A DNA stretch of 64,000 nt from Escherichia coli. GTDB taxonomy: Bacteria; Pseudomonadota; Gammaproteobacteria; Enterobacterales; Enterobacteriaceae. Location of the stretch: NCBI RefSeq assembly GCF_011045215.1, contig NZ_CP049201.1. The stretch is one strand, 5' to 3'. The position numbers and the translations under genes are program-made. Below the pieces are notes generated by a model. The model was not told the origin of the DNA. It worked only from the letters and a program-made list of their open reading frames with translations, and did no database searches. Each line of letters begins with the position of its first letter. Position 1 is the stretch's first letter. Below, in pieces: positions 8,551 through 32,152 of this stretch.

Positions 8551-9498
8551 TTAGCTGGTCAGAACACTCAATGCTGTTTGTCTGAAACAGGAGTAGGCTT
8601 CTTCCCAGTCAATCTGTGTATTACCAAATACCATCGGTTTAACAAACCGTTGAAAACGCAATTTGTGTACAGGATCATCCCGGAGTGCATCCAGCCCTTT
8701 CTTAAGTTCATCAACTGGTGAGCTACAAAATTGTGGGTACTGGTTACCATAGCGTTCAATATCCTGTTGAATACATATCTGAACAAAATTTTTCAATACA
8801 GGAACATTCACACCTTTTTCCCTGACAATGCAGTAGTTGTCGTAAATGTGACGTACCAGGAACTCATCATCCTGTTGTTCGGGATTACGAAGATGTGCTG
8901 CTGTTCTTCGCATCATGGAGATGAGCTTTTCAGCCTGAGTGGACAAAATGGTGGCACAGGGGAATGCTGTTACAGGTGTACCTTTACCCGTTAACTCCGT
9001 GACAAGTGAATAAATATCTCTGCTTTCCGGATGTTCCAGCAGGGTGCTTTCCATCAACTCCAGCTTAATAAATGGACGAAGACAGGGGACTTGCGCAAAT
9101 GTCTGGGGATAACGTACCGAGATTTCGTTATAACGATACTCATCACGTGTTATACGGGCGTTTTCATTATCCAGGCTGAAAATGTCAGAATTATTAATAA
9201 CATCCGTGATTATTTGCACGATTTTCTTGCGAATTTTTCTTCTCTTGTCTCTGCCATTTTGCATAAAGTTCTCTGTTGGCACGAGCTTTATATCAATATC
9301 TTCTGACATTCTGTTCAATGAGATACCTGCTTTTGACAATGCGGTACCTCCTGCAAACACGAGAGTATGTGTTTCTGGTTTTATTTCTTTTAGTAACTTT
9401 AAAAGATTAACCACAAAATAATCTTTTTCGACGATAGCGACAGATTCAATATCCAGTGCGTTGGCAACGTCAGGAAATAATGATGTTAATTCAGGCAT
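8551..9498 (-). CDS. AbiEii-family nucleotidyltransferase (toxin of an AbiE-type TA/abortive-infection pair)
   Basis: 315 aa with the GGTAL...R.SEDIDI nucleotidyltransferase signature; overlaps the upstream AbiEi-like gene by 8 nt. Confidence 0.7.
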   Translation of the reverse strand: MPELTSLFPDVANALDIESVAIVEKDYFVVNLLKLLKEIKPETHTLVFAGGTALSKAGISLNRMSEDIDIKLVPTENFMQNGRDKRRKIRKKIVQIITDVINNSDIFSLDNENARITRDEYRYNEISVRYPQTFAQVPCLRPFIKLELMESTLLEHPESRDIYSLVTELTGKGTPVTAFPCATILSTQAEKLISMMRRTAAHLRNPEQQDDEFLVRHIYDNYCIVREKGVNVPVLKNFVQICIQQDIERYGNQYPQFCSSPVDELKKGLDALRDDPVHKLRFQRFVKPMVFGNTQIDWEEAYSCFRQTALSVLTS

Positions 9499-15615: not shown

Positions 15616-16917
15616 TTAGCGGACTGCTTCTCCTCTCACAGTGTAACCTTCAATAAAATTAGCCATATCCTCGTTGTCTTTGTGGCTGTTGTCAGGGAAC
15701 TGCTCAATGGCGAACAATTCAGAGAAAGTATTTCTGCAGTTCAGGGTGGCAATCCGGGTTCCCTGGTTAAACACGAGAATGCCATCAAATGCCGGTGTTT
15801 CTCCGTCGTAGCGCTGCACAACCACATAGTCGTATGAACCTTTATGAAAACGCAGATATTTCAGTTTTCCTTTACCCCGGTTAAGATCGCGCCAGTAATG
15901 AAAGGCACTGACGCCAAACATACCTTCTTTTAATTCCAGCTCCAGCGTGCCGTCTTTTTTGAGAAGGTGGTAGGTGTAGGGAAAACCATCCTGTGCAAGA
16001 ACAGACAGAGCCTTACCGTTTGTGAGCGTACAGTCTGCCAGTGCTGTCGCCGGGATCGCAGATTGCGAATCAGGTGCTGCTGGCCTGGCTTTTTCCGGTT
16101 CAGGGGGATTTTGCTCCCCGGACCCGGTATCGGTTTTCCCGGGAGAAGTGACGGTGGCATCGTAAGCCGGCGTCTGAATACGTGTATCCGGTGGATTGTT
16201 ATCGGCGTCATTAAAACGCTTTGTCGTTGATGAATAGCCTGCCTGTTCGTTGGTGTAGCCGCCTGTAGGCATCCGTGATTTCTTACGCCATTCTCCATTC
16301 ACTTTTTCATACCCGGATTCTGTCATCATCCGTTCCTGCAGACTGGTGATTTCTGTTTCAGGGGAGTGCGGTTGCCTGTCCCCGGAATACAGAAACTCGT
16401 CCAGTGTCATCTTTTTGTTCTTCCGGGTATCCGTGTGGATGAGAGATTTCGGAATAAATGTCTTACAGGCTTCGGTGAAGTTACCTTTACGGAAAGTGGC
16501 CGTTTTCCCTTCAATGGTAACGGTTGCTCCCATGAAGTGTGTGAAAGCCGGTATGGCACGGGCTGCCATATCCGGCGCTGCACGGGGGGTATCCCCCAGC
16601 GTCACCATTCTGCGAAATCCCGTGGCGCTGTTACATACCATGAGAGATTTCCAGGTCTGGTCGTTGATTCTGGTAGTGATAAAGCGGGTTCCCGGAAAAT
16701 CGAGATTATCCGGACATCCCTTGTCCATGCTCATAAAAACCATACCTTCATCAGAAATGAGGGCAGTTTCATTTCCTTCACTACTGATGGCCTGGCATGC
16801 GCCGTTTCTGATTTCCCAGTTGTCGGTAAAATAGTCGCAACCGGTAAGAACGGATATTGCCGAAGCTATCATCAGGGAATGACGTAATACCCGCATGTTC
16901 AGTTTTTTGTTCAGCAT
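15616..16917 (-). CDS. Hypothetical lipoprotein
   Basis: 433 aa; signal peptide ending in lipobox LTGC; Pro/Thr-rich linker in the middle. Confidence 0.5.
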   Translation of the reverse strand: MLNKKLNMRVLRHSLMIASAISVLTGCDYFTDNWEIRNGACQAISSEGNETALISDEGMVFMSMDKGCPDNLDFPGTRFITTRINDQTWKSLMVCNSATGFRRMVTLGDTPRAAPDMAARAIPAFTHFMGATVTIEGKTATFRKGNFTEACKTFIPKSLIHTDTRKNKKMTLDEFLYSGDRQPHSPETEITSLQERMMTESGYEKVNGEWRKKSRMPTGGYTNEQAGYSSTTKRFNDADNNPPDTRIQTPAYDATVTSPGKTDTGSGEQNPPEPEKARPAAPDSQSAIPATALADCTLTNGKALSVLAQDGFPYTYHLLKKDGTLELELKEGMFGVSAFHYWRDLNRGKGKLKYLRFHKGSYDYVVVQRYDGETPAFDGILVFNQGTRIATLNCRNTFSELFAIEQFPDNSHKDNEDMANFIEGYTVRGEAVR

Positions 16918-16959: not shown

Positions 16960-17640
16960 TCACAGGTTAAAGGTGTTGATAAGTTTATGGATGAAAGGGA
17001 AATGTGGCAGAGCGGAGATAAAACGCTCTTCAGCGACCAGACTGTGGATGTGGTCTCTCCGTTCAAACCGTTCTGATGTCAGGCTGACCGATTTGATGTC
17101 TGCCAGGGGAAAGACCCGCAGTTTTTCCTTCTGTAACGCGATCAGATACCAGCTTCCGCTGTAATAAATGAGCCGGCAGGGTTCCAGTGACGGATACCAT
17201 TGCTCAGTCACCAGCGAGATGTGGATGCACTGTCTTATTGCCAGGATGAGTTGCGAGAAACACTCGGGGAGTGTTGCAGTGATATCCGGCGCCGGTAGCC
17301 AGATAAGGCAGGGAGAGGGCTCCTGGTTGTCGGTAAGACAGGTTATCAGTCGTCCGTTCCGGAGCGGAAGTATCCGTGCGATCCCCGTATTCTGTATAAA
17401 TGAAAGCATTTCAGGGAGCGCGCCCGGGTTGCTCTGCCGTCTGAGACTGTACCGGCCATTTCTGTACTCTAAGTCCAGGTGAACCAGACGCTGATGAAAA
17501 TCGCGCTGTAAGGTACGTTCTGTAACACCAAATTCATCTGACAGTGTTTTTAGTGACAGAGATTCTCCGGCCATCAGTCGGCTGATAATGAGTGATAAGC
17601 GAACCGCCAGGCGATCATGCCGGGAACGATTATCAGACAT
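16960..17640 (-). CDS. HTH plus WYL-like domain transcriptional regulator (YfjR-like)
   Basis: 226 aa; N-terminal HTH (LKTLSDEFGVTERTLQRD), C-terminal WYL-like segment (YYSGSWYLIA). Confidence 0.65.
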   Translation of the reverse strand: MSDNRSRHDRLAVRLSLIISRLMAGESLSLKTLSDEFGVTERTLQRDFHQRLVHLDLEYRNGRYSLRRQSNPGALPEMLSFIQNTGIARILPLRNGRLITCLTDNQEPSPCLIWLPAPDITATLPECFSQLILAIRQCIHISLVTEQWYPSLEPCRLIYYSGSWYLIALQKEKLRVFPLADIKSVSLTSERFERRDHIHSLVAEERFISALPHFPFIHKLINTFNL

Positions 17641-17842
17641 AGATGTGTACTCCGTAAGAAAACATCTTTTATTTCATGATGTTATTATGCATCATGATGT
17701 TGAAAGGATGTGTCGTATCCGAATCATCAGGAATAAAATGCAGCAGAAAAAATATTCCTTTAATTATCTGATTTTTAAGCAGGGTCTCATAAAAAGAAGA
17801 ATGCTTGTTAATCCAGCGACACATCCTGTCGGCGTGAGTGTG

Positions 17843-18727
17843 TCAGAACAGACGATCCCACAGTGTGACCAGCAGGTGGATAATGCGGTCCCGGGCCTTA
17901 CGCAGAAGCTGTAACATCCAGGCCGGAAAGCTGAACCGGGCAACGGTGTCGTCAAAGCTTTTCCCGATGGCGTCACCAAAAGTTTGTTGTGCGTGTTTCC
18001 GGGTCTGTTCAGAGCGGTTTTCCCTCCGGATATGTGAATAAACCGCGCTGGTTGCCTGTGGTGGCAGTGCGTGGATCATCAGCGATACCAGTGCCGGAAG
18101 ATTCCAGCCGACAGGTGCAGCAACGGAGAGTACCGGAAATGATGAAGGGAACAGGGTTGCCACCCGGGCTGTTACTGTTGCCAGTGAGAGTTCCTGCTGA
18201 CGGGACGGGCATTTTTCTGTGTCGTTCCATTCTTCAGCAGGAAACACGCGATCGGCATGGCTGAGAACAAACAGAAAACGCGAGGGATCTGCACCTTCAT
18301 TCAGTAAAAACTGATGCATGGCAATATCAGCAGCATACGCACGTTCATCACTCCGCAGGATCCAGATAATCAGATCCAGTTCCGGTAGCAGCTGACGATA
18401 AAGTGTCCGGTATTCCTGATCATGCTGCGGTGTTTCACCAATGCCGGGCAGATCGACCAGCGTCATTCTGTGTTCACCGAGCTGCAGGGTAAGACGATGA
18501 GCCTGGCGGGTGCAGCCGTTCAGAGGATGTGTGGCGCAGATACGGGACTGAAAAATGGCATTACACAGACTGCTTTTGCCTGTGCCGGATTTACCCATAA
18601 TGCCAATCACGGGCTCGTAATGAATAACACCGTGGAGATGTTCAAGGATTTTCTGGCGAATTTCTTCAGGAAGAAACGTCAGATATGATTTCACTTGTGC
18701 GGAGAGGGAAGAATGGCTGAATGACAT
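17843..18727 (-). CDS. YeeP/YfjP/YkfA-family GTPase
   Basis: 294 aa; G1 P-loop GKSGTGKSS; first gene of the conserved leftward module. Confidence 0.8.
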   Translation of the reverse strand: MSFSHSSLSAQVKSYLTFLPEEIRQKILEHLHGVIHYEPVIGIMGKSGTGKSSLCNAIFQSRICATHPLNGCTRQAHRLTLQLGEHRMTLVDLPGIGETPQHDQEYRTLYRQLLPELDLIIWILRSDERAYAADIAMHQFLLNEGADPSRFLFVLSHADRVFPAEEWNDTEKCPSRQQELSLATVTARVATLFPSSFPVLSVAAPVGWNLPALVSLMIHALPPQATSAVYSHIRRENRSEQTRKHAQQTFGDAIGKSFDDTVARFSFPAWMLQLLRKARDRIIHLLVTLWDRLF

Positions 18728-18911
18728 ACCGTTATCCTGTTGATTTCGCTGAACCGGATCACACTAATCCGGTTTATCATTCATGTAATATGGACGTGAA
18801 AAATGATGGAATGTCTGAATTACGGACATGATTGTTAAAGTGTAATGGAGTATGAAGTGAGTTTTTCCGAACGGGAACTAATGACATACTGCGGTTTCAG
18901 GAGATGAGAGG

Positions 18912-20042
18912 ATGACCGGACGTAAAAACAAATGTGTCAGAAAAAATTGTAACAATCAGGTTTTCTCAGTAAAAATGGCAGTGGAGAAAAGACTGTGCAG
19001 AAAACATTATGAGAGGTTTTGTGAGCTCAAAAAAAGAAGAGAGCAAAATCCTGTTCACAGATTAAATGAAGCATTGCCAAGAAAGATAAAAGAACCCAAA
19101 AGTAAGAAAAAATTAGTAAAAGAAAGAGAAATCATTAACAGCAGAAAAAAACATAAACAGGAGCAGGGACCATCGCTGGCTGAACTTAATAAAAAAGTTC
19201 GTGAGATACTGAAAACTCCGGCATGGAGAACGCTGGAAACGAGAATTCGAAGAAATGGCATCACATTTAAGTCAAAAGCAGAGTTAGATGCGCTTTCTGA
19301 ACTTTATGCAATTTATTCATGGGTTTCATATTGCAAACGGGGCGATAATTATTCTGTGTGGTTTTTGAATTGTCCGGATGTAAATATAAATCTTCATGTG
19401 TGCGAATGCCGGTCTTCTGAAAGCGATTGTTATCTGCCATCCCGTTTTATTATCCTCCCAGCTCCATTAAGGCAAAAAGTAAAAAGAAAATACTCTGCTA
19501 ATTCGTCTGGGGTACCAGGACATAATGATTCAAAAAGTCTTTATAAGACAGTTTTGTCTGTTTGTGGTGGGAAAAGAGAAACCGAATTGTTCTTTTATTC
19601 ACTGCCAGTAAAGACTAATCATCATCCTTACTGGATTAAAAGTGGTGTGGTTAAAAGATTTTCTCCTGTTTTTGGTTTGTTGTTTTATGAGCAGGAAAGG
19701 TTAACAGGAGGTGTTTTTCGTTATGTGTTGATAAGGTTTTATAATACTTTTAAGGAGAATTTGTTTTTTGTTGAGATTGTCTCGTGCTGTTTTCTTGTTG
19801 AGCTTTTTCATGATATTGATTCGTTTTTTATAAATCAACGATTAAGTAAGCTTGAAAGTTTTATAGATAAGTGGAAGGAGGGTAAAGAAATCTGGATAAA
19901 AGCATATCTACAACTTATACATAATACATTGGGAATAACTGAAACAGAAAAACTCGTCAATCTATATAATTCATTTTTTACTGATAAAGTGGTTCTCTGG
20001 GATGAATCAGTAAAAAAAGTTAAGTGGATTTATGAGAAATAG
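18912..20042 (+). CDS. Hypothetical protein, Cys/His-rich basic N-terminus, AT-rich gene
   Basis: 376-aa ORF; N-terminal C-x4-C-x15-C-x2-H-x4-C then a Lys/Arg-rich stretch; no family recognised. Confidence 0.4.
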   Translation: MTGRKNKCVRKNCNNQVFSVKMAVEKRLCRKHYERFCELKKRREQNPVHRLNEALPRKIKEPKSKKKLVKEREIINSRKKHKQEQGPSLAELNKKVREILKTPAWRTLETRIRRNGITFKSKAELDALSELYAIYSWVSYCKRGDNYSVWFLNCPDVNINLHVCECRSSESDCYLPSRFIILPAPLRQKVKRKYSANSSGVPGHNDSKSLYKTVLSVCGGKRETELFFYSLPVKTNHHPYWIKSGVVKRFSPVFGLLFYEQERLTGGVFRYVLIRFYNTFKENLFFVEIVSCCFLVELFHDIDSFFINQRLSKLESFIDKWKEGKEIWIKAYLQLIHNTLGITETEKLVNLYNSFFTDKVVLWDESVKKVKWIYEK

Positions 20043-21576
20043 TACCATTTAACTGAAAGCCACCATAACGTCTTTTTGATTACATTCATGATAATGCATC
20101 TCATTTTGTTTTCGTTTTTTTGTTCAGGGAAATTTTCCGAACATCAGTGATAATGAGGGTTTTGTTGTTTTTGTTTCTGCAATGTTTGAGGGCTGTTCCT
20201 GGAGATGATTCGTTGTTTGTGAGCAAGAGGTGGTCCGCTTTTCTGGACAAGTTTTGTATTTGTTGAGTGGTGAAATGGAAGTAAAAAGAGCCCCTTTCTG
20301 GCAATGACTGAAAAAGTCAGTAGCGTGTGACAGTAAAAACTAACATAAAGTGATTATCGTATGATTATGACAATAACTTATAACTTTTATGAAAAGAATA
20401 ACAGAAACTACGAGGCCATAGCAGATTCCTGAGATCATGTTTTCTGAGGTAGAGAAAATAATTCCAGAGTAAATCTGTTCTGTTTTTAGGACAGAAAACT
20501 CCATGTTGGCTGTAAAAGTGAAAAATCAACACCCAGTATGCATGGATGTCTGAAGATGTTGAGAATGTCGGTATGATACTATATACACATATTTTACTCA
20601 GTATTTTTACTAAGCATTTCAGTAAGTGTTATACACGTATTTTCATAAACAATTCTACAAGTGTTTTCATTAAGTATTGTTATACACATTGCTTTGTCTG
20701 ATACACATCCAGTTTAGTAAATTTGTTAGTCCTGTTTTTACGATAGCTAAAATCAGTTAACGTCACTACAAAACTCCCTGTCCTGTTTAAGCAGTCAATA
20801 TGCTATTCGATTTTACTGATGTTACATTTAACCTTTTATGAGTTTTCGTGTTTTTAGTCGTTAACCTGAGACAAGTGTTTTTATGTAAAACGCAAATCCG
20901 GCTGAGATAACCTGGCGTGATTTACTGTGTGCTTACGATGATTTTGTTAAATGGTTTTATAGATGATTTTGTAGCAATGAGATTGATGAGATGATTAACT
21001 GGCCCTGGTGTTTTTTCTCAGCGCAAGGTGATTATCTTCATCATAAGGCTCTTTTCAGGAAAAGCGTGATGATTGGTTCTGGTGTTTTGATTCAGATGAG
21101 ATTTACGTTATTGATGGTTAATCGTTTTTATGGTGTGTTGAAAAGTAACGTTTTCAGGATAAGAAAATCGATTCTGATATTGGTGGTTTTTGTTCTTGTG
21201 GCGGGGTTATCTGTAAACAGGTTTTAAGCGCGCTATTCGGCTCTGTGATTGAGTTGTGTGGTTAAGCTGTAGGTTTTGGTGTTGTTGTTGATTTACAGAG
21301 CCAGAAAGCGTTCTGATTGCGTTTTTGGTGTTTTGTTTGTACGTTCTGTGGATCCGTTTCCCTTCTGACTTTTCTCGTCGTCCATGTCGTTTTTAAATCC
21401 ATTCATGCTGTTGTTGCGTGTTTTGTTGTCGTGTGCAGGATTATCTTTTCGTTACGGGACGATTCATTCCGTTTTAATCAGGAGCTATTGGCGTTGCTCA
21501 TTGGTGGGATGCCGTAAAGTTTTACCGCGGCGATTAATGATGTGAAGTCAATCCAAATCAACGGAGATCTCTCATC

Positions 21577-22308
21577 ATGAATCAACCAATACACAATGCT
21601 TACTGGTTATCCCGTTTTGAAAGTATTCTCAACAGTGACCTGGTGCAACACCTTGCCGTTTCGTTAATCCGGGTGGATTTACGTTTCCCTGAGTATATGC
21701 CTGCCAGCATCATGGATACCGATTTAGATTCAGCGGTGATTTCTCGTTTTTTCGAATCCCTGAAAGCCAAAATCCAGGCTTACCAGCGGAAAAAACGACG
21801 TGCCAACAAGCGTGTGCGTGCAACCACTCTGCGTTATTTCTGGTGTCGGGAGTTCGGCAAGATGTATGGCAGGAAACATTATCACGTGATATTACTGCTC
21901 AACAAAGATACCTGGTGCTCGCTCGGGGATTTCAGCGAACCATCTTCGCTGGCGACGCTGATCCAGCTGGCATGGTGCAGCGCTCTGCATCTTGAGCCCT
22001 GGCAGGGTAATGGACTGGTTCATTTTTCCAGGCGGACTTCTTTCCGTCAACCGACTTCATCTGATGCTCCCCCTTCTTCCGATGATACGCCTTTGCCAGG
22101 TGGATGCTCTGATACCAGGAAGGCTTCTGACAAAAAATCTGGTGGATCCGCTGTACTCTGGGTCACGCGTGGTGATGTGGAAGCGGTACAGAAAGCCATG
22201 GAGAGAGCCCTTTATCTCGTGAAGTATGAGACGAAGCAGCATGACGGTTCAGGTCAACGTAATTATGGTTGCAGTCGTGGGGCGGGGCGTCTACTGGATG
22301 GCAGGTGA
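21577..22308 (+). CDS. YagK/YfjJ-family protein (inovirus Gp2-like by recollection), paralog 1
   Basis: 243 aa; shares block pattern with the three ORFs at 26673, 27467 and 28641 (R.DL.FP..., HYH.hLL..., ALYL.KY). Confidence 0.55.
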   Translation: MNQPIHNAYWLSRFESILNSDLVQHLAVSLIRVDLRFPEYMPASIMDTDLDSAVISRFFESLKAKIQAYQRKKRRANKRVRATTLRYFWCREFGKMYGRKHYHVILLLNKDTWCSLGDFSEPSSLATLIQLAWCSALHLEPWQGNGLVHFSRRTSFRQPTSSDAPPSSDDTPLPGGCSDTRKASDKKSGGSAVLWVTRGDVEAVQKAMERALYLVKYETKQHDGSGQRNYGCSRGAGRLLDGR

Positions 22309-22389
22309 ACCCGGTAAAATGGCATCCGGTGCCTGAGCATACGTCACGTAATTAACTGTCTTGACCAACAAAATTATGGAGTAACCTGA

Positions 22390-23042
<653 letters not shown>

Positions 23043-23064
23043 TATTGCCCATTCTTGCTAATGT

Positions 23065-23102
<38 letters not shown>

Positions 23103-23478
23103 TGGCTCAGCGTATGCGCCATTTGCTTACATACGGGCTTAAACCCTAAGGGGCACCAGGCTGCATACGTTTTGCCAAATCTGTTCTCTGCTCATGATAA
23201 CGAAGAACCAGGATACAAGGTGAAAGAAGATCCTCAACGCTCAGGGGCGTAATGTTCCCTGTGTTTCATGCCCCCATCGTTTGTTGCTGTGGTGCCAGAC
23301 TTCCGAGGCACTTCCATGTCGTTTTGTTTTTGTCAGCATCATAAATGCGTCGGGACTGGTGAATGGAGATAAGCCGTTTTATTATCGGGATCAGCGAACA
23401 TACTCACAATGTCGGAATGTTTCTGAACTGAACAATAAGTTTTGTGCTGATTACAGTATGTGAAGGAGGTCAGGCACA

Positions 23479-25083
23479 ATGAATCCTGCTTATATGCAAG
23501 CCTTGCAGATATCCCCCCACTTCCCCGCCAATATAACCAGGCGATTATTTCCTGGTGAGCTTGCATTCCTCATTGAAGACTTATATGCAAGTACCCAACT
23601 TCCGCTGGAGCTCATTTTTAATACTGTACTGGCAACGCTCTCACTCTCCTGTCAGTCACTGGTTGACGTTGTTCATCCTCACACCAACATGCCGGAACCC
23701 TGCTCACTTTATCTGTTGGCAATCGCAGAGCCAGGCGCGGGAAAAACAACGATAAACAGACTGGTGATGAACCCCTGTTACGAATTTGCTGATCGACTCA
23801 TTCAACAATACGAAGAGAGAAACAAAGATTATAAGACTGAACTACAGATCTGGAATACCCGGCAGAAAGCGCTTGCTGCCAATTTAAGAAAGGCTGTTAA
23901 CCGGGGGTATCCGGGGGAACAGGAAGAAGAGGCACTGCGTAATCACGAAAGAAATAAACCGACACGTCCGGTTCGACCGAATTTTATCTATGAAGATGTT
24001 TCGCTTAAAGCGCTTGTGGAAGGGCTCAATGAACATCCTGAGGTAGGGGTTATTTCTGATGAGGCGGTCACTTTTTTCAGAAGCTATCTGAAAAATTATC
24101 CGGGCCTGTTGAATAAAGCATGGAGTGGGCAACCGTTTGATTTTGGACGGGCTGACGAGAAATACCATATCACGCCACGACTGACATTTTCGTTAATGTC
24201 CCAGCCGGATGTCTTTACGAATTATATAAATAAAAATGACGTACTGGCGTGGGGAAGCGGATTTCTTTCCCGGTTTCTGTTCAGTCAGGTTGTAAGTTCT
24301 TCCTGGATACGTGATTATACGAGAGGCGAGTTCAGAACAATACCAACCCTGGAGAAATTTCATAAAAAGATTAACGGATTTCTGTTAAGCCATAACATTA
24401 ATTCCCCCGGCACGAGCACCGAAAGGAAGACATTAAAACTTGCGAAAAAAGCGTTGGGGGAGTGGCAGGAAAACCAGATTAAGATTGAAAGAAAAACGCT
24501 TGCAGGAGGGGAGTGGGAACACATCAGAGATATTGTGCTGAAAGCAGGTTCTAATATACTGAGGATAGCGGGTTTATTCACCTGCTATTGCTATAAAGAT
24601 GCTGAGGAAATTGAATCAATTGCGCTTTTTAAAGCTATGCATCTCATGGACTGGTATCTGGAGGAAGCGAGCACAATATTTTATCCCATGTCTGAACGAT
24701 GCCAGTTTGAACAGGATAGCCGTGAGCTGTATACATGGATTATGACCCGAATCAGACAGAATAACTGGTGTGCTATCAGGAAAACAGACATTGAAAGATA
24801 TGGTCCCAATCGTCTGAGAAGAGCAGAAAAACTTACACCTGTGCTCAATCAGTTAATCTGTCAGGGGTATTTATGTATCATCAGAATGCGAACGCATCAG
24901 ACACTTTATGTTTCTGTTCGTTATAATAATGGTTGCATCCCTCCTTTTGGCGCAATGTCTTACGAATCATTTGAGATTATTCCACCCGAGAATAGCCATA
25001 ATGCGAAAACATATCACGTTAATATTCCACCGGAATTAATTCCGCCATTTGCGTTACCTTTTTCAACCCATGGCTTATTTTGA
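23479..25083 (+). CDS. YfjI-like P-loop protein (DUF3987-like)
   Basis: 534 aa; Walker A AEPGAGKT; AGGAGG RBS upstream; integrase-proximal module gene in CP4-57-like islands. Confidence 0.55.
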   Translation: MNPAYMQALQISPHFPANITRRLFPGELAFLIEDLYASTQLPLELIFNTVLATLSLSCQSLVDVVHPHTNMPEPCSLYLLAIAEPGAGKTTINRLVMNPCYEFADRLIQQYEERNKDYKTELQIWNTRQKALAANLRKAVNRGYPGEQEEEALRNHERNKPTRPVRPNFIYEDVSLKALVEGLNEHPEVGVISDEAVTFFRSYLKNYPGLLNKAWSGQPFDFGRADEKYHITPRLTFSLMSQPDVFTNYINKNDVLAWGSGFLSRFLFSQVVSSSWIRDYTRGEFRTIPTLEKFHKKINGFLLSHNINSPGTSTERKTLKLAKKALGEWQENQIKIERKTLAGGEWEHIRDIVLKAGSNILRIAGLFTCYCYKDAEEIESIALFKAMHLMDWYLEEASTIFYPMSERCQFEQDSRELYTWIMTRIRQNNWCAIRKTDIERYGPNRLRRAEKLTPVLNQLICQGYLCIIRMRTHQTLYVSVRYNNGCIPPFGAMSYESFEIIPPENSHNAKTYHVNIPPELIPPFALPFSTHGLF

Positions 25084-29204: not shown

Positions 29205-29302
29205 CTGCCACATCTGATTTCGGGTGTGTTTCGGCAAGGTTGTTCAGTAAGGCATTCCTTCGTAAAATCAGCCTGTTTTTTGCACGACGGAAACCGGCAG
29301 CC

Positions 29303-32152
29303 ATGAAAATCTGTCTTTATCATACCCTGAATCCAGAGATCATCCCGGGCTATAAAAAATTTGCACAGGCCATTGCGGCTGATAACTTTGTTCAGGCTGA
29401 TGTTCGTAAAATTGATACCAATCTTTACCGTGCACGGCTCAGTATCCGGGATCGATTGCTGTTTTCGCTGTATCGTTATCATGGTGAAACTGTCTGCCTT
29501 GTACTGGAATATATTCGCAATCATGCCTATCACACTTCACGTTTTCTTCGCAAAAATGTGGTTATTGATGAAGACTGCGTACAACAACAACCTGTGCCGG
29601 ATCCTGTTGATATAGCGACTGAAACACTGACGTATATCAATCCGTCTCACGGGCGTTTTCATCGTCTGGATAAAATGTTGTCCTTTGATGATGAGCAGCA
29701 GGCGTTGTACGAACATCCGCTACCGCTGGTGATTGTGGGATCTGCAGGGAGTGGTAAGACGGCGCTGGTACTGGAAAAAATGAAGCAGGCCGCGGGTGAT
29801 ATACTGTATCTCAGCCTCTCCACATTTCTGGTGGAAAAAGCACGAACGCTTTATAACGCGTCGGGGGAAGGGAGTGATGCGCAGAATATTGACTTTCTGT
29901 CACTGACGGAATTCCTGGAAACCCTGCGCATTCCGGAAGGCCGGGAGGTGACCTTCAGGGCATTCAGCGACTGGCTGCCCCGCAACAGGACCACCGTTGC
30001 GCTGGGGTCTGCCCATACCCTGTATGAGGAGTTCCGGGGTGTGATTGGTGCGGCCGTTTCCGGCAACGGACCACTGTCCCGGGAGGTGTATCTGTCGCTG
30101 GGGGTACGGCAGTCGCTCTACAGTATGGATGATCGCCCGACGGTCTATGCCCTGTTCGAACGTTATACGGCATGGCTGAAACAGTCGCGTCAGTATGACA
30201 GTAATCTGCTCAGTCATCAGTACCTGCCGCTGGCAGAGCCCCGTTACGATGCCATTTTTGTCGATGAAGTTCAGGATATGACGCCTGTTCAGTTGCAACT
30301 GGTACTGAAAACATTGCGTCATCCCGGCCAGTTTTTGCTTTGTGGTGATGCCAGTCAGATTGTTCATCCCAGCTTTTTCTCATGGAGTTCACTTAAGAGC
30401 CTTTTTTTCCGGCAACACCAGGGGAACAATGCTGCCATTAATATCCTGCAGGCGAATTACCGTAACGGGCACCATATCACCGCACTGGCTAACCGTCTGC
30501 TGAGACTCAGACAGGCCCGGTTCAGCGCCATTGATCGGGAAAGCCACCATTTCGTCAGAAGCTGTGGTCAGACGGAAGGCGCAGTCCGGTTACTGGAAGA
30601 CCGGGAAGAAAACCGACAGGAGCTGAACACCAAAACCTCACGTTCGAATCGGGTGGCGGTCATTGTGATGCATCCGGAACAGAAAGTACAGGCACGTTGC
30701 TGGTTCAGTACACCGCTGGTTTTTTCAGTTCAGGAGGTTAAGGGGCTGGAATACGAAACGGTGATCCTCTACAACATGGTCAGCGGTGTCCGGCAGGCGT
30801 TTGATGATATCTGTGAGGGGATTTTTCTGGCGGATCTTGAGGGTGAGTCCCGTTATTCCCGTCCGCGGGACAGGCAGGATCGTTCAGCGGAAATCTACAG
30901 GTTTTTTATCAATGCGCTGTATGTTGCGTTCACCCGTGCCACGCACAACGTGTATCTTGTTGAACAGCAGGTGGCGCATCCGTTGTGGCGCCTGCTTGCG
31001 CTCACGCATCAGGAAGAGCAACTGAATCTGCAGGAGGAGATTTCCAGCCGTGATGAGTGGCAGAAAACTGCACATTTGCTTGAGAAACAAGGGAAGCAGG
31101 AGCAGGCGGATACCATCCGCAGCCGGCTCCTGCAGCAGTCTGAAGTACCGTGGCACATCATTACCGCAGAGGAAGCCCGGCAGTGGAAAGAACAGATCCT
31201 CGCAGGCACGGCCAGTAAAGCCACACAACTGCAGGCGCTGGAGTACAGTCTGATTTACTCCCTGTTTCCGCTGTATAATGCGCTGTACCGGGAAGATTTT
31301 AAGCCCACCAGACAGTCCAGGGCGAAGAGTCTGCTGTTGCTGGAGCAGAAATATTTCCGGCCATACTCGGTGAATAACCCGGTTGCGGTGTTGCGGGATA
31401 TTGAGCGTTATGGTGTTGATCACCGCTCGCCGTTTAATCTTACTCCGCTGATGTCAGCAGCCCGGGCAGGCAACATTGCACTGGTTCAGTTACTGCTTGA
31501 CCGTGGTGCAGATCCCTTGCTAATCGGTAATGACGGGCTGGCAGCTTATCATCACGTCCTGTCAGCGGCGGTCAGTACGCCCCGTTATGCGCAACAGAAA
31601 AGTGCGCAGTTGTATACCCTGCTGAGACCAGAAAGTCTCTCACTGCAGGTGGAAGAACGGCTCATCAAACTGGACAACCGGCAGATGGCAATGTTTCTGG
31701 TGCTCCTGATGCAGGCACTGTTCTTCACGCATCTGGGGAGTGCTCTGGCCTTTTCGGAAGCTTTCAGTGCGGCACGACTGGCAGAGTGTGTGGCTCACCT
31801 TCCTGAAGCGTTGTTGCCGGAGCGCCGCAAAAGAAGGAATTATATCAGCAGCCAGCTTTCTCAACATGAGGTTAACAGCAAAAACCCTTATGGAAAAAAG
31901 CTCTTTCTGAGACTGAATCATGGGCAGTATATTCTTAATCCGGGGCTTAAAATCAGACAGGGTGACGTGTGGTGTGCGGTTTATGAGTTGCAGTCACCGG
32001 AAGATCTCGGTCATGATTTGCAGACTTATCTGCAGGACATGTCTCCGGAATTCGTGGAGATTCTGGGGGGGAGGAAGGATTTTTACAAACACAGTGAGGA
32101 GGTTGTCGGATACTGGGTGGAGGTGATTCGTCGTGCTGGTCTGAAAGCGTGA
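29303..32152 (+). CDS. Large SF1 (UvrD/RecD-like) helicase with unknown N-terminal domain and C-terminal ankyrin-like repeats
   Basis: Walker A GSAGSGKT, Walker B FVDEVQD, motif III GDASQ, motif V KGLEYETV, motif VI VAFTRAT; ankyrin-like LTPLMSAARAGNIALVQLLLDRGADPLLIGNDG; ATG at 29303 (ORF track starts at a TTG at 29240). Confidence 0.7.
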   Translation: MKICLYHTLNPEIIPGYKKFAQAIAADNFVQADVRKIDTNLYRARLSIRDRLLFSLYRYHGETVCLVLEYIRNHAYHTSRFLRKNVVIDEDCVQQQPVPDPVDIATETLTYINPSHGRFHRLDKMLSFDDEQQALYEHPLPLVIVGSAGSGKTALVLEKMKQAAGDILYLSLSTFLVEKARTLYNASGEGSDAQNIDFLSLTEFLETLRIPEGREVTFRAFSDWLPRNRTTVALGSAHTLYEEFRGVIGAAVSGNGPLSREVYLSLGVRQSLYSMDDRPTVYALFERYTAWLKQSRQYDSNLLSHQYLPLAEPRYDAIFVDEVQDMTPVQLQLVLKTLRHPGQFLLCGDASQIVHPSFFSWSSLKSLFFRQHQGNNAAINILQANYRNGHHITALANRLLRLRQARFSAIDRESHHFVRSCGQTEGAVRLLEDREENRQELNTKTSRSNRVAVIVMHPEQKVQARCWFSTPLVFSVQEVKGLEYETVILYNMVSGVRQAFDDICEGIFLADLEGESRYSRPRDRQDRSAEIYRFFINALYVAFTRATHNVYLVEQQVAHPLWRLLALTHQEEQLNLQEEISSRDEWQKTAHLLEKQGKQEQADTIRSRLLQQSEVPWHIITAEEARQWKEQILAGTASKATQLQALEYSLIYSLFPLYNALYREDFKPTRQSRAKSLLLLEQKYFRPYSVNNPVAVLRDIERYGVDHRSPFNLTPLMSAARAGNIALVQLLLDRGADPLLIGNDGLAAYHHVLSAAVSTPRYAQQKSAQLYTLLRPESLSLQVEERLIKLDNRQMAMFLVLLMQALFFTHLGSALAFSEAFSAARLAECVAHLPEALLPERRKRRNYISSQLSQHEVNSKNPYGKKLFLRLNHGQYILNPGLKIRQGDVWCAVYELQSPEDLGHDLQTYLQDMSPEFVEILGGRKDFYKHSEEVVGYWVEVIRRAGLKA

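Follow-up and report, generated by a model that had tools for sequence, protein, structure and literature searches.

The gene orf376 (18912..20042, plus strand) lies within a 64,000-nucleotide (nt) stretch of Escherichia coli DNA from contig NZ_CP049201.1, hereafter the window, in the gap between the genes for a YfjP/YeeP-type GTPase and a YagK/YfjJ protein. It encodes a 376-amino-acid (aa) member of an unnamed family of the Enterobacterales, here called X. On the evidence of its gene neighbourhood, X is a backbone gene of P4-integrase/CP4-type islands and not cargo. It comes in highly divergent alleles that are exchanged as sharply bounded cassettes in a fixed slot, and the window protein seems to descend from an HNH-type protein, in catalytically degenerate form. 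To our knowledge, the family is undescribed and the swappable-cassette structure of its slot is unreported in the literature that we searched, where queries on the X accessions, YfjJ/YagK, the GTPases and the backbone domain set yielded nothing relevant.

The exchange of alleles is seen at the borders of the slot. Nucleotide similarity of the window to the corresponding loci of 536, Ec55 and ECONIH1 ends at about 18803 and restarts exactly at 20455. The junctions 18804/18805 and 20454/20455 are base-sharp and identical for the three other allele classes examined; in a base-by-base comparison of seven alleles, all split just past GTGAAAAA and restart at AAAATAATTCCAGAGTAA. The two most stable local DNA folds of the segment are found at these junctions. 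Between them, the orf376-type allelic cassette, or idiomorph (18805..20454, plus strand), consists of a 107-nt leader, orf376 and a 412-nt tail, with a guanine-plus-cytosine (GC) content of 35.1%. In 536 and ECONIH1 the slot holds the gene for a 407-aa 'hypothetical' protein, in Ec55 genes for a 316-aa protein and, convergent to it, one of 262 aa. The 407-aa protein falls into family X (hhalign probability 100%, E = 7e-46, over its full length), as does the 316-aa Ec55-type protein (96.6%, E = 7e-10), which is devoid of the zinc knuckle described below. The 262-aa partner gene of Ec55 is unrelated to X, and the partner genes of the Ec55-type cassette have no family matches. Knuckle-less X alleles (310-320 aa) are always accompanied by such a convergent partner of 262-284 aa, the ends of the two genes overlapping, and may represent a two-gene version of the cassette; partner genes at the comparison loci L016 (5671-6459), L018 (1310-2164) and L021 (1636-2445), each on the minus strand, likewise have no family match and no similarity to X.

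Across islands with different X alleles, protein identity to the window amounts to 94-96% for the WYL regulator, 93-95% for the GTPase and 86-89% for YagK, and to only 16-21% for X. Strains 536 and ECONIH1 share an X that is 99% identical, with YagK only 87% identical, whereas 536 and Ec55 differ in X and share 95% identity in YagK; as judged from such pairs, X alleles reassort freely against their flanks. The orf376-type cassette was found in 462 of 5,426 complete E. coli genomes, the 536 type in 976, and the Ec55 type with its sub-variants in 742. Of the slot copies, about 2,590 in all, these three types make up about 2,400 (~93%), and further sub-variants exist. A search with a chimeric query of left and right flank revealed a near-empty slot in one of 1,876 genomes, and this single case is an internal deletion of an orf376-type cassette with leader and tail retained.

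Could this diversity reflect a conflict? Extreme divergence within a conserved backbone (16-21% against 86-96% identity), together with the free reassortment of the cassettes, would suit a protein of defence, anti-defence or interaction with a helper phage or plasmid, with its alleles shaped by an arms race or by balancing selection. The neighbourhood is indeed rich in antirestriction, toxin-antitoxin (TA) and abortive-infection (Abi) genes, and in CP4-57 the yfjJ-yfjP interval carries AbpAB and RnlAB. However, no allele has a match in PADLOC 2.0 (orf376 none at E <= 0.1, six other alleles and the partner genes none at E <= 0.05), and the occupants of the slot form one family, whereas a hotspot for cargo would hold unrelated genes. 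Selection within an allele class is purifying, and the orf376 type is nearer to a Klebsiella protein (30% identity) than to the other E. coli alleles, which argues for old lineages instead of rapid local divergence. We thus regard a role of X in conflict as rather unlikely.

The flanks of the slot are those of the island backbone. On its left, the GTPase gene (17843..18727, minus strand; Pfam MMR_HSR1, 7e-15) is the first of a leftward backbone operon that continues with genes for the WYL regulator, DUF932, antirestriction, RadC and CbeA/CbtA proteins, in agreement with what RefSeq lists for homologous loci; orf376 lies 5' of the GTPase gene and is divergently transcribed from it. On its right, the YagK/YfjJ protein ('inovirus Gp2 family'; 21577..22308, plus strand; Pfam YagK_YfjJ_C 2e-37, REP_ORF2-G2P 3e-8) has the HUH motif HYHVIL at residue 101 and YLVKYETK at residue 213. 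These motifs suggest that the island, supposedly cryptic, has a working HUH nickase or Rep. In Klebsiella, the corresponding slot holds an X protein of 30% identity, whose gene diverges from that of a 50%-identical GTPase and precedes those for AlpA and a Rep_ORF2-G2P protein; in the Enterobacteriaceae isolate RIT691, a 410-aa X lies between a WYL regulator and YagK-AlpA. X proteins with an intact HNH motif (see below) are encoded directly 3' of an AlpA-like gene in three of five loci examined, the remaining two being uninformative; one of these motif-intact loci continues with DUF3987, DUF932 and antirestriction genes, another with the GTPase. It is because this synteny recurs in Klebsiella, RIT691 and the motif-intact relatives that X is to be counted among the backbone genes.

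This placement bears on a claim of the first-pass annotation of the window, which took the position of orf376 for the usual site of antigen 43 (flu). In the K-12 island CP4-44 the order is yeeP -> isrC -> flu -> yeeR on one strand, with flu downstream of yeeP; therefore, the equivalent place in the window is to the left of the GTPase and not on the side of orf376, which is upstream of the GTPase and divergent. The assignment as an antigen 43 locus had to be rejected, the position being wrong and orf376 lacking autotransporter and other Pfam domains. The large window open reading frames (ORFs) that we checked did not include a flu/Ag43 gene.

Is orf376 a genuine gene at all? Its 376-codon frame with an ATG start is present exactly as annotated at first pass, and a Shine-Dalgarno-like AGGAG lies at 18899-18903, 8 nt 5' of the start. 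Given an AT-rich region and databases that say 'hypothetical protein' and nothing more (RefSeq lists WP_000147745.1, 376 aa, at homologous loci and leaves the spacer behind it unannotated), one might suspect a spurious or decaying frame in H-NS-silenced junk DNA. This suspicion can be considered effectively refuted. Compared with a divergent reference allele (locus L007, 81% protein identity to the window), orf376 shows 87.5% nucleotide identity and zero gaps, beside a spacer that is rich in indels in the same pair; the substitutions, 39/33/69 by codon position, are concentrated at the third. The ratio of nonsynonymous to synonymous substitution rates (dN/dS) is 0.32 against L007 and 0.16 against the common allele, comparable to the flanking GTPase and YagK genes. 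The reading frame is whole in 461 of the 462 genomes with the orf376-type cassette, at 95-99% identity, and 3,400 near-identical proteins are found in databases; the entire segment 18700-21600 is present in 438 of the 5,426 E. coli genomes (megablast). Full-length homologues at 30-38% identity share the motif pattern, and the structure prediction is confident. Because indels are missing, dN/dS is 0.16-0.32 and full-length homologues exist, orf376 is by all comparative measures a functional protein-coding gene under purifying selection; instead of a degraded fragment of some known gene, the alternative that the first-pass annotation had allowed for, it is intact.

Nor is the protein an orphan, as had been proposed: of the other island-bearing genomes, ~1,880 in number, most have homologous alternative alleles in this slot, and the profile search and structure prediction recommended at first pass, once run, yielded both a homologous family and a usable fold model. 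A word-indexed search of 5.8 billion proteins found relatives over the full length, at 81%, 38% and 30% identity, those at 30% coming from Klebsiella and Atlantibacter. An exhaustive profile search of 1.84 billion cluster representatives reached full-length homologues beyond that level and gathered 37 clusters (at 50% identity), of which about 20 are full-length (370-432 aa); a second word-indexed search with alignment A2 as input added no further members. All named members come from Enterobacterales, namely Escherichia, Klebsiella, Lelliottia, Atlantibacter, Providencia, Proteus and Moellerella, and each is labelled 'hypothetical protein'. No match to orf376 was obtained in Pfam (none even at E <= 1), NCBIfam, PHROG or PADLOC, and Pfam searches with all 27 members of the family alignment as whole proteins gave nothing meaningful. 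We also considered a plasmid or phage gene and rejected this, X being found in one of 72,556 plasmid records and in no phage record. Two members are of separate interest. P0026 (465 aa) has two tandem copies of the N-terminal zinc-knuckle motif, and locus L011, a contig of 5,130 bp (LR733917.1, Enterobacterales bacterium 8AC) that may be a small replicon or a contig fragment, holds a motif-intact X with AlpA-like, ParM/StbA-like and 307-aa unknown genes only.

The architecture of the orf376 protein was modelled with AlphaFold2 on a 27-sequence alignment, with a mean predicted local distance difference test score (pLDDT) of 84.3 and a predicted template modelling score of 0.71; an input of 10 close sequences gave a pLDDT of 45. 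The N-terminus is formed by a zinc knuckle and helices (residues 7-54, pLDDT ~96), followed by a disordered basic linker (55-80) and then by a helical domain that includes a beta-beta-alpha unit; residues 210-353 form the C-terminal domain, also helical, which closes with a small hairpin. The putative zinc-finger-like motif, C8-x4-C13-x15-C29-x2-H32-x4-C37, is exact in the translation and holds up in the family alignment: encoded by codons 8-37 (18933..19022, plus strand; pLDDT ~96), it provides the four predicted ligands of a CCCH knuckle, C8, C13, C29 and H32, at fixed spacing, plus the lineage-specific C37. C8, C29 and H32 are at least 90% conserved among the 27 members, C13 is kept in most, and C37 only in close relatives. 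Besides the ligands, W105, P183, R263, E288 and Y352 are conserved in the family. The beta-beta-alpha unit is encoded by codons 158-194 (19383..19493, plus strand), with strands modelled at 161-165 and 179-183 and the helix at 184-194.

The protein is basic, as noted before (pI 9.7; 72 Lys and Arg against 40 Asp and Glu), and contains 12 Cys and 9 His. Its C-terminal half is hydrophobic in relative terms, the grand average of hydropathy being -0.08 there against -1.2 at the N-terminus, with a peak Kyte-Doolittle value of 1.83 near residue 293; this half is modelled as a soluble helical bundle and not as transmembrane helices. A membrane protein was rejected, since the only hydrophobic helix, a borderline one, is part of a bundle modelled with confidence, and the N-terminus combines a basic character with a zinc knuckle. 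The profile of the C-terminal domain had no relative among PDB sequences; that of the full-length protein weakly resembled the N-terminal CxxC...CxxH finger of TtuA (E = 8, not significant), and a mixed mid-domain profile produced chance matches only. By these searches, the C-terminal helical domain is new and has no detectable relatives.

What can be learned about the origin of the central domain? At the position of the beta-beta-alpha unit, ten distant X members carry the motif LE(V/L)(C/S)H-x-YPN-x2-GG-x-N-x3-N-x2-I-x-P-x2-(I/L)N. Searched against the PDB, a 58-column profile of this motif from the ten members finds its best match (E = 0.69) in the catalytic HNH motif of McrA, with the two in exact register. 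Isolated segments touch no Pfam families other than HNH_4 (5 of 10 members, best E = 0.017) and HNH_5 (4 of 10, best E = 0.028), with E = 0.017-0.2 and below gathering scores. With hhalign, K-12 McrA is aligned at its residues 224-250 (P = 2e-4), and eleven of the named weak fold matches of the orf376 model in BFVD are phage HNH endonucleases, none of them significant. A combination of an N-terminal Cys/His knuckle with an HNH domain is common in phage HNH proteins, a pattern weakly echoed by these BFVD matches. While each signal is sub-threshold, the four of them taken together make it likely that family X descends from an HNH-type nuclease.

In the window protein itself, there is no significant match to the HNH profiles of Pfam (PF01844, PF13391, PF13392, PF13395, PF14279), and the catalytic His, the structural Asn and the Asn/His metal ligand are all missing. 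At the catalytic position, His is found in the ten distant members, Lys in Klebsiella and E165 in the window; the structural Asn and metal-ligand positions, invariant as N27 and N36 of alignment A3 in the motif-bearing members, are R178 and R187. The Klebsiella and 536-type lineages likewise lack the three key residues. With E165, R178 and R187 in these places, the window protein is probably not an HNH nuclease. Its likeness to the HNH superfamily, as represented by McrA and HNH_4/HNH_5, comprises the motif of its distant relatives, in register with McrA LEVHHVIPLSSGGADTTDNCVALCPNCH, and perhaps the beta-beta-alpha unit that the model places at the motif position. It differs in that all X matches fall below curated thresholds, that the classical CxxC zinc pairs are absent, that the last metal ligand is Asn and not His even in motif-intact members (with all three residues lost in the window), and that the helical C-terminal domain of about 180 residues has no counterpart.

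An HNH ancestry and rival cassettes at one site call to mind the free-standing HNH homing endonuclease genes, such as the mob genes of T-even phages. The cassette could be, or could derive from, such a gene, which would move from island to island by cutting targets that have a rival cassette or none and being copied into them during repair, with the E. coli copies as degenerating remnants; like the T-even genes, it is a self-contained, AT-rich unit between conserved genes, and it has base-sharp junctions and its own leader and terminator-like tail. However, the presence/absence polymorphism of homing genes was not found, as no intact empty target site was detected among the 1,876 genomes. Three catalytic positions are lost and yet the gene is under purifying selection and free of indels; the slot is conserved across genera at 30% identity, its neighbours having themselves diverged; and the same allele type can occur twice in one genome. 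We consider homing very unlikely as an explanation for the cassettes.

Which function, then, might all alleles share? Our tentative proposal, which we hold to be plausible if somewhat short of probable, is that X is a nucleic-acid-binding protein that does not cut, has a function that all alleles share and is expressed from a conserved divergent promoter region. X would no longer cut DNA and would bind nucleic acid with its zinc knuckle, its basic linker and an inactive HNH scaffold; it would act in a DNA-processing and regulatory module of the island composed of AlpA, X, HUH-Rep (YagK/YfjJ) and DUF3987, and its probable site of expression would be the divergent promoter region shared with the GTPase operon. 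Several points weigh against this proposal. The Ec55-type allele is entirely devoid of the zinc knuckle, so that the knuckle cannot be essential to a shared function. We infer nucleic-acid binding and expression, and zinc binding is a prediction from the motif. One helix is hydrophobic enough to attain the Kyte-Doolittle threshold of a membrane segment. Finally, the C-terminal domain holds four of the most conserved residues, P252, R263, E288 and Y352, and could hide an unrecognised active site.

The proposed expression of X from a divergent promoter draws attention to the intergenic region. The part shared by all cassette types (18728..18804, ~78 nt) has the most stable local DNA fold of the segment (z = -3.6) and contains, at 18752-18774, a perfect 8-bp inverted repeat with an N7 spacer, AACCGGAT-CACACTA-ATCCGGTT, as well as a -10-like TAATAT within 18785-18793. 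The promoter/operator region for X, the GTPase operon or both is probably located here, and the palindrome looks like a putative operator for a dimeric regulator, for which the adjacent WYL/HTH protein is the obvious candidate. A promoter scan found fewer sigma-70-like sites than in shuffled controls.

On the other side of the gene, the first-pass annotation had seen about 1.5 kb of AT-rich, apparently non-coding DNA, and this description is borne out: the tract 20043-21576 (1,534 bp, 36.7% GC) has no maintained ORF in ten alleles and no frame signal in tblastx. The check for degraded ORFs that had been recommended was likewise negative: tblastx comparisons with related loci, and of the window with itself, showed no signal tied to a particular frame. 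The spacer is, by comparison of the alleles, a composite. Its first part is the non-coding tail of the cassette (20043..20454, plus strand; 412 nt), which has a terminator-like hairpin at 20233-20248 and changes along with the X allele but not along with the leader further downstream; a 10-nt word of the tail, TTTTCCGAAC at 20133-20142, recurs in the cassette leader at 18863-18872, without clear co-variation in the 81% variant. The second part is the leader of the YagK/YfjJ gene (20455..21576, plus strand; 1,122 nt), non-coding, G+T-skewed, of 36.9% GC and independent of the X allele. Mostly unannotated, it is present in 1,879 of the 5,426 genomes, four times the orf376 count. The alignment of ten leader alleles has frequent indels, and open stretches that recur in an A-poor tract are frame-broken in the window. 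Rfam gave chance-level matches only across 17500-23500, the consensus RNA structure of the leader had tiny energies with unreliable z-scores and no strong structure, and a search for iterons and hairpins in the segment yielded short, weak repeats only. Because YagK carries the HUH motif and YLVKYETK, it is reasonable to infer a candidate origin or regulatory region in the leader. In some islands, whichever X allele is present, a 176-aa gene (WP_000778605.1) with a weak NikA-like match (E = 0.011) is inserted in this leader, for example at L017 (6777-7307) and L027 (7136-7666), in both on the minus strand.

The vicinity of this leader raises the question whether X could be an accessory specificity factor for the HUH protein, recognising an origin- or oriT-like (origin-of-transfer-like) site within the AT-rich DNA and assisting in the loading or guidance of the HUH nickase. 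In E. coli, Klebsiella and RIT691, X accompanies YagK/Rep-like genes in the same orientation; YagK has both the HUH and YxxK motifs, with a long, conserved, strand-skewed non-coding leader between the genes, and the leftward antirestriction/RadC/TA operon resembles the leading region of plasmids in content. However, X alleles co-vary neither with YagK alleles nor with the leader, some relatives have no adjacent YagK, the leader has no strong conserved hairpin or iteron array, and the element is almost absent from plasmids. A dedicated partnership with the HUH protein is therefore unlikely in our view, and we return to a general nucleic-acid-binding role as the reading we prefer.

With 34.1% GC against 50-52% in the flanking genes, orf376 lies in a trough of 31-36% GC that extends from ~18800 to ~21200, between neighbours at 50-55%. 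The AT-richness seen at first pass is thus real, and the figure of ~30% GC given for it was slightly low, against 34.1% measured for the gene and 36.7% for the tract behind it. More questionable is the foreign origin read from it. Four X lineages with a zinc knuckle and a degenerate HNH motif (two E. coli types, Klebsiella and RIT691), mutually only 16-30% identical, all have 34-36% GC next to neighbours of 50-54%; because such divergent lineages all keep it, low GC looks like a maintained trait of the family or slot rather than the mark of a recent import. In its AT-richness (34-37% GC against flanks of 50-54%), the locus does resemble an H-NS-silenced xenogeneic gene, and silencing or control of orf376 by H-NS is plausible, being compatible with the low GC.

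Further features were noted along the island. Between the WYL regulator and the DUF905/DUF932 genes, a 433-aa ORF (15616-16917, minus strand) has a lipoprotein-type signal (…LTGC) and no match in Pfam, NCBIfam, PHROG or PADLOC; the homologous islands examined have a 225-aa 'hypothetical protein' there. The stretch 22400-23300, which separates YagK from the DUF3987 (YfjI-family) gene, contains broken ORFs on either strand. This interval is probably an IS110 remnant, since the matching interval of L021 is annotated as a frameshifted IS110-family transposase fragment and L002 has an IS110 fragment elsewhere in the island. Possible defence cargo comprises an AbiEii-type nucleotidyltransferase toxin (8551-9498, minus strand; Pfam 3e-30) and, at 29240-32152 on the plus strand, a UvrD-like helicase of 970 aa that includes a region of ankyrin repeats.

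Few mobile elements of E. coli, Shigella and Klebsiella are as common as the CP4-type islands, which carry virulence, resistance and toxin-antitoxin cargo and whose regulation, replication and movement are poorly understood. Our analysis defines a backbone gene family that is nameless in databases, for an island backbone present in about 35% of complete E. coli genomes, and describes it as a set of sharply bounded, swappable cassettes with a likely link to HNH nucleases whose catalytic residues have been lost. It corrects the readings of the locus as a replacement of flu and as an orphan, and divides the spacer in two, the tail of the cassette and a non-coding leader of 1.1 kb, widely conserved, that belongs to an HUH-endonuclease gene. 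The X slot thus offers a concrete experimental handle on the biology of these islands.

How does this slot compare with known systems? With the K-12 islands CP4-57, CP4-44 and CP4-6, the window shares the backbone of YfjP/YeeP GTPase, YfjR-like WYL regulator, DUF932, antirestriction and RadC proteins, along with DUF987, CbeA/CbtA, YfjJ/YagK, YfjI (DUF3987) and AlpA. In contrast, CP4-44 and CP4-57 have no gene annotated in the equivalent divergent position beside the GTPase, and in CP4-57 the modules are co-oriented, with the defence cargo abpAB and rnlAB between yfjJ and yfjP, whereas those of the window diverge from the X slot.

A different kind of parallel is provided by idiomorphic or mosaic specificity regions, such as the immunity regions of lambdoid phages, stl of the staphylococcal pathogenicity islands (SaPI) and the staphylococcal agr groups. 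One could imagine the X slot as a true idiomorphic locus, in which ancient HNH-derived cassettes are kept under balancing selection, X serves as a recognition module and the C-terminal domain is a new sensor or enzyme. We judge this improbable, and it would have considerable consequences: X could be a switch for self/non-self or helper recognition that times the activation of AlpA and HUH-Rep, the motif-intact relatives from the Morganellaceae would still cut DNA, and an unrecognised regulatory or conflict system would reside in roughly a third of E. coli genomes. X differs from the known idiomorphic systems in having no helix-turn-helix domain, an allele-specific operator for it being hypothetical, and in that two copies of one allele type reside together in a genome. 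The exclusion of same-type alleles expected of phage-like immunity was not found, the orf376 type occurring at 514 places in 462 genomes, with at most two per genome, and strain MDR_56 having two such islands; this co-residence argues against strict immunity or incompatibility. What X has in common with these systems is its set of unalignable alleles in a fixed slot with sharp flanks and free reassortment, and its divergence from a neighbouring operon across a shared, palindrome-bearing intergenic region.

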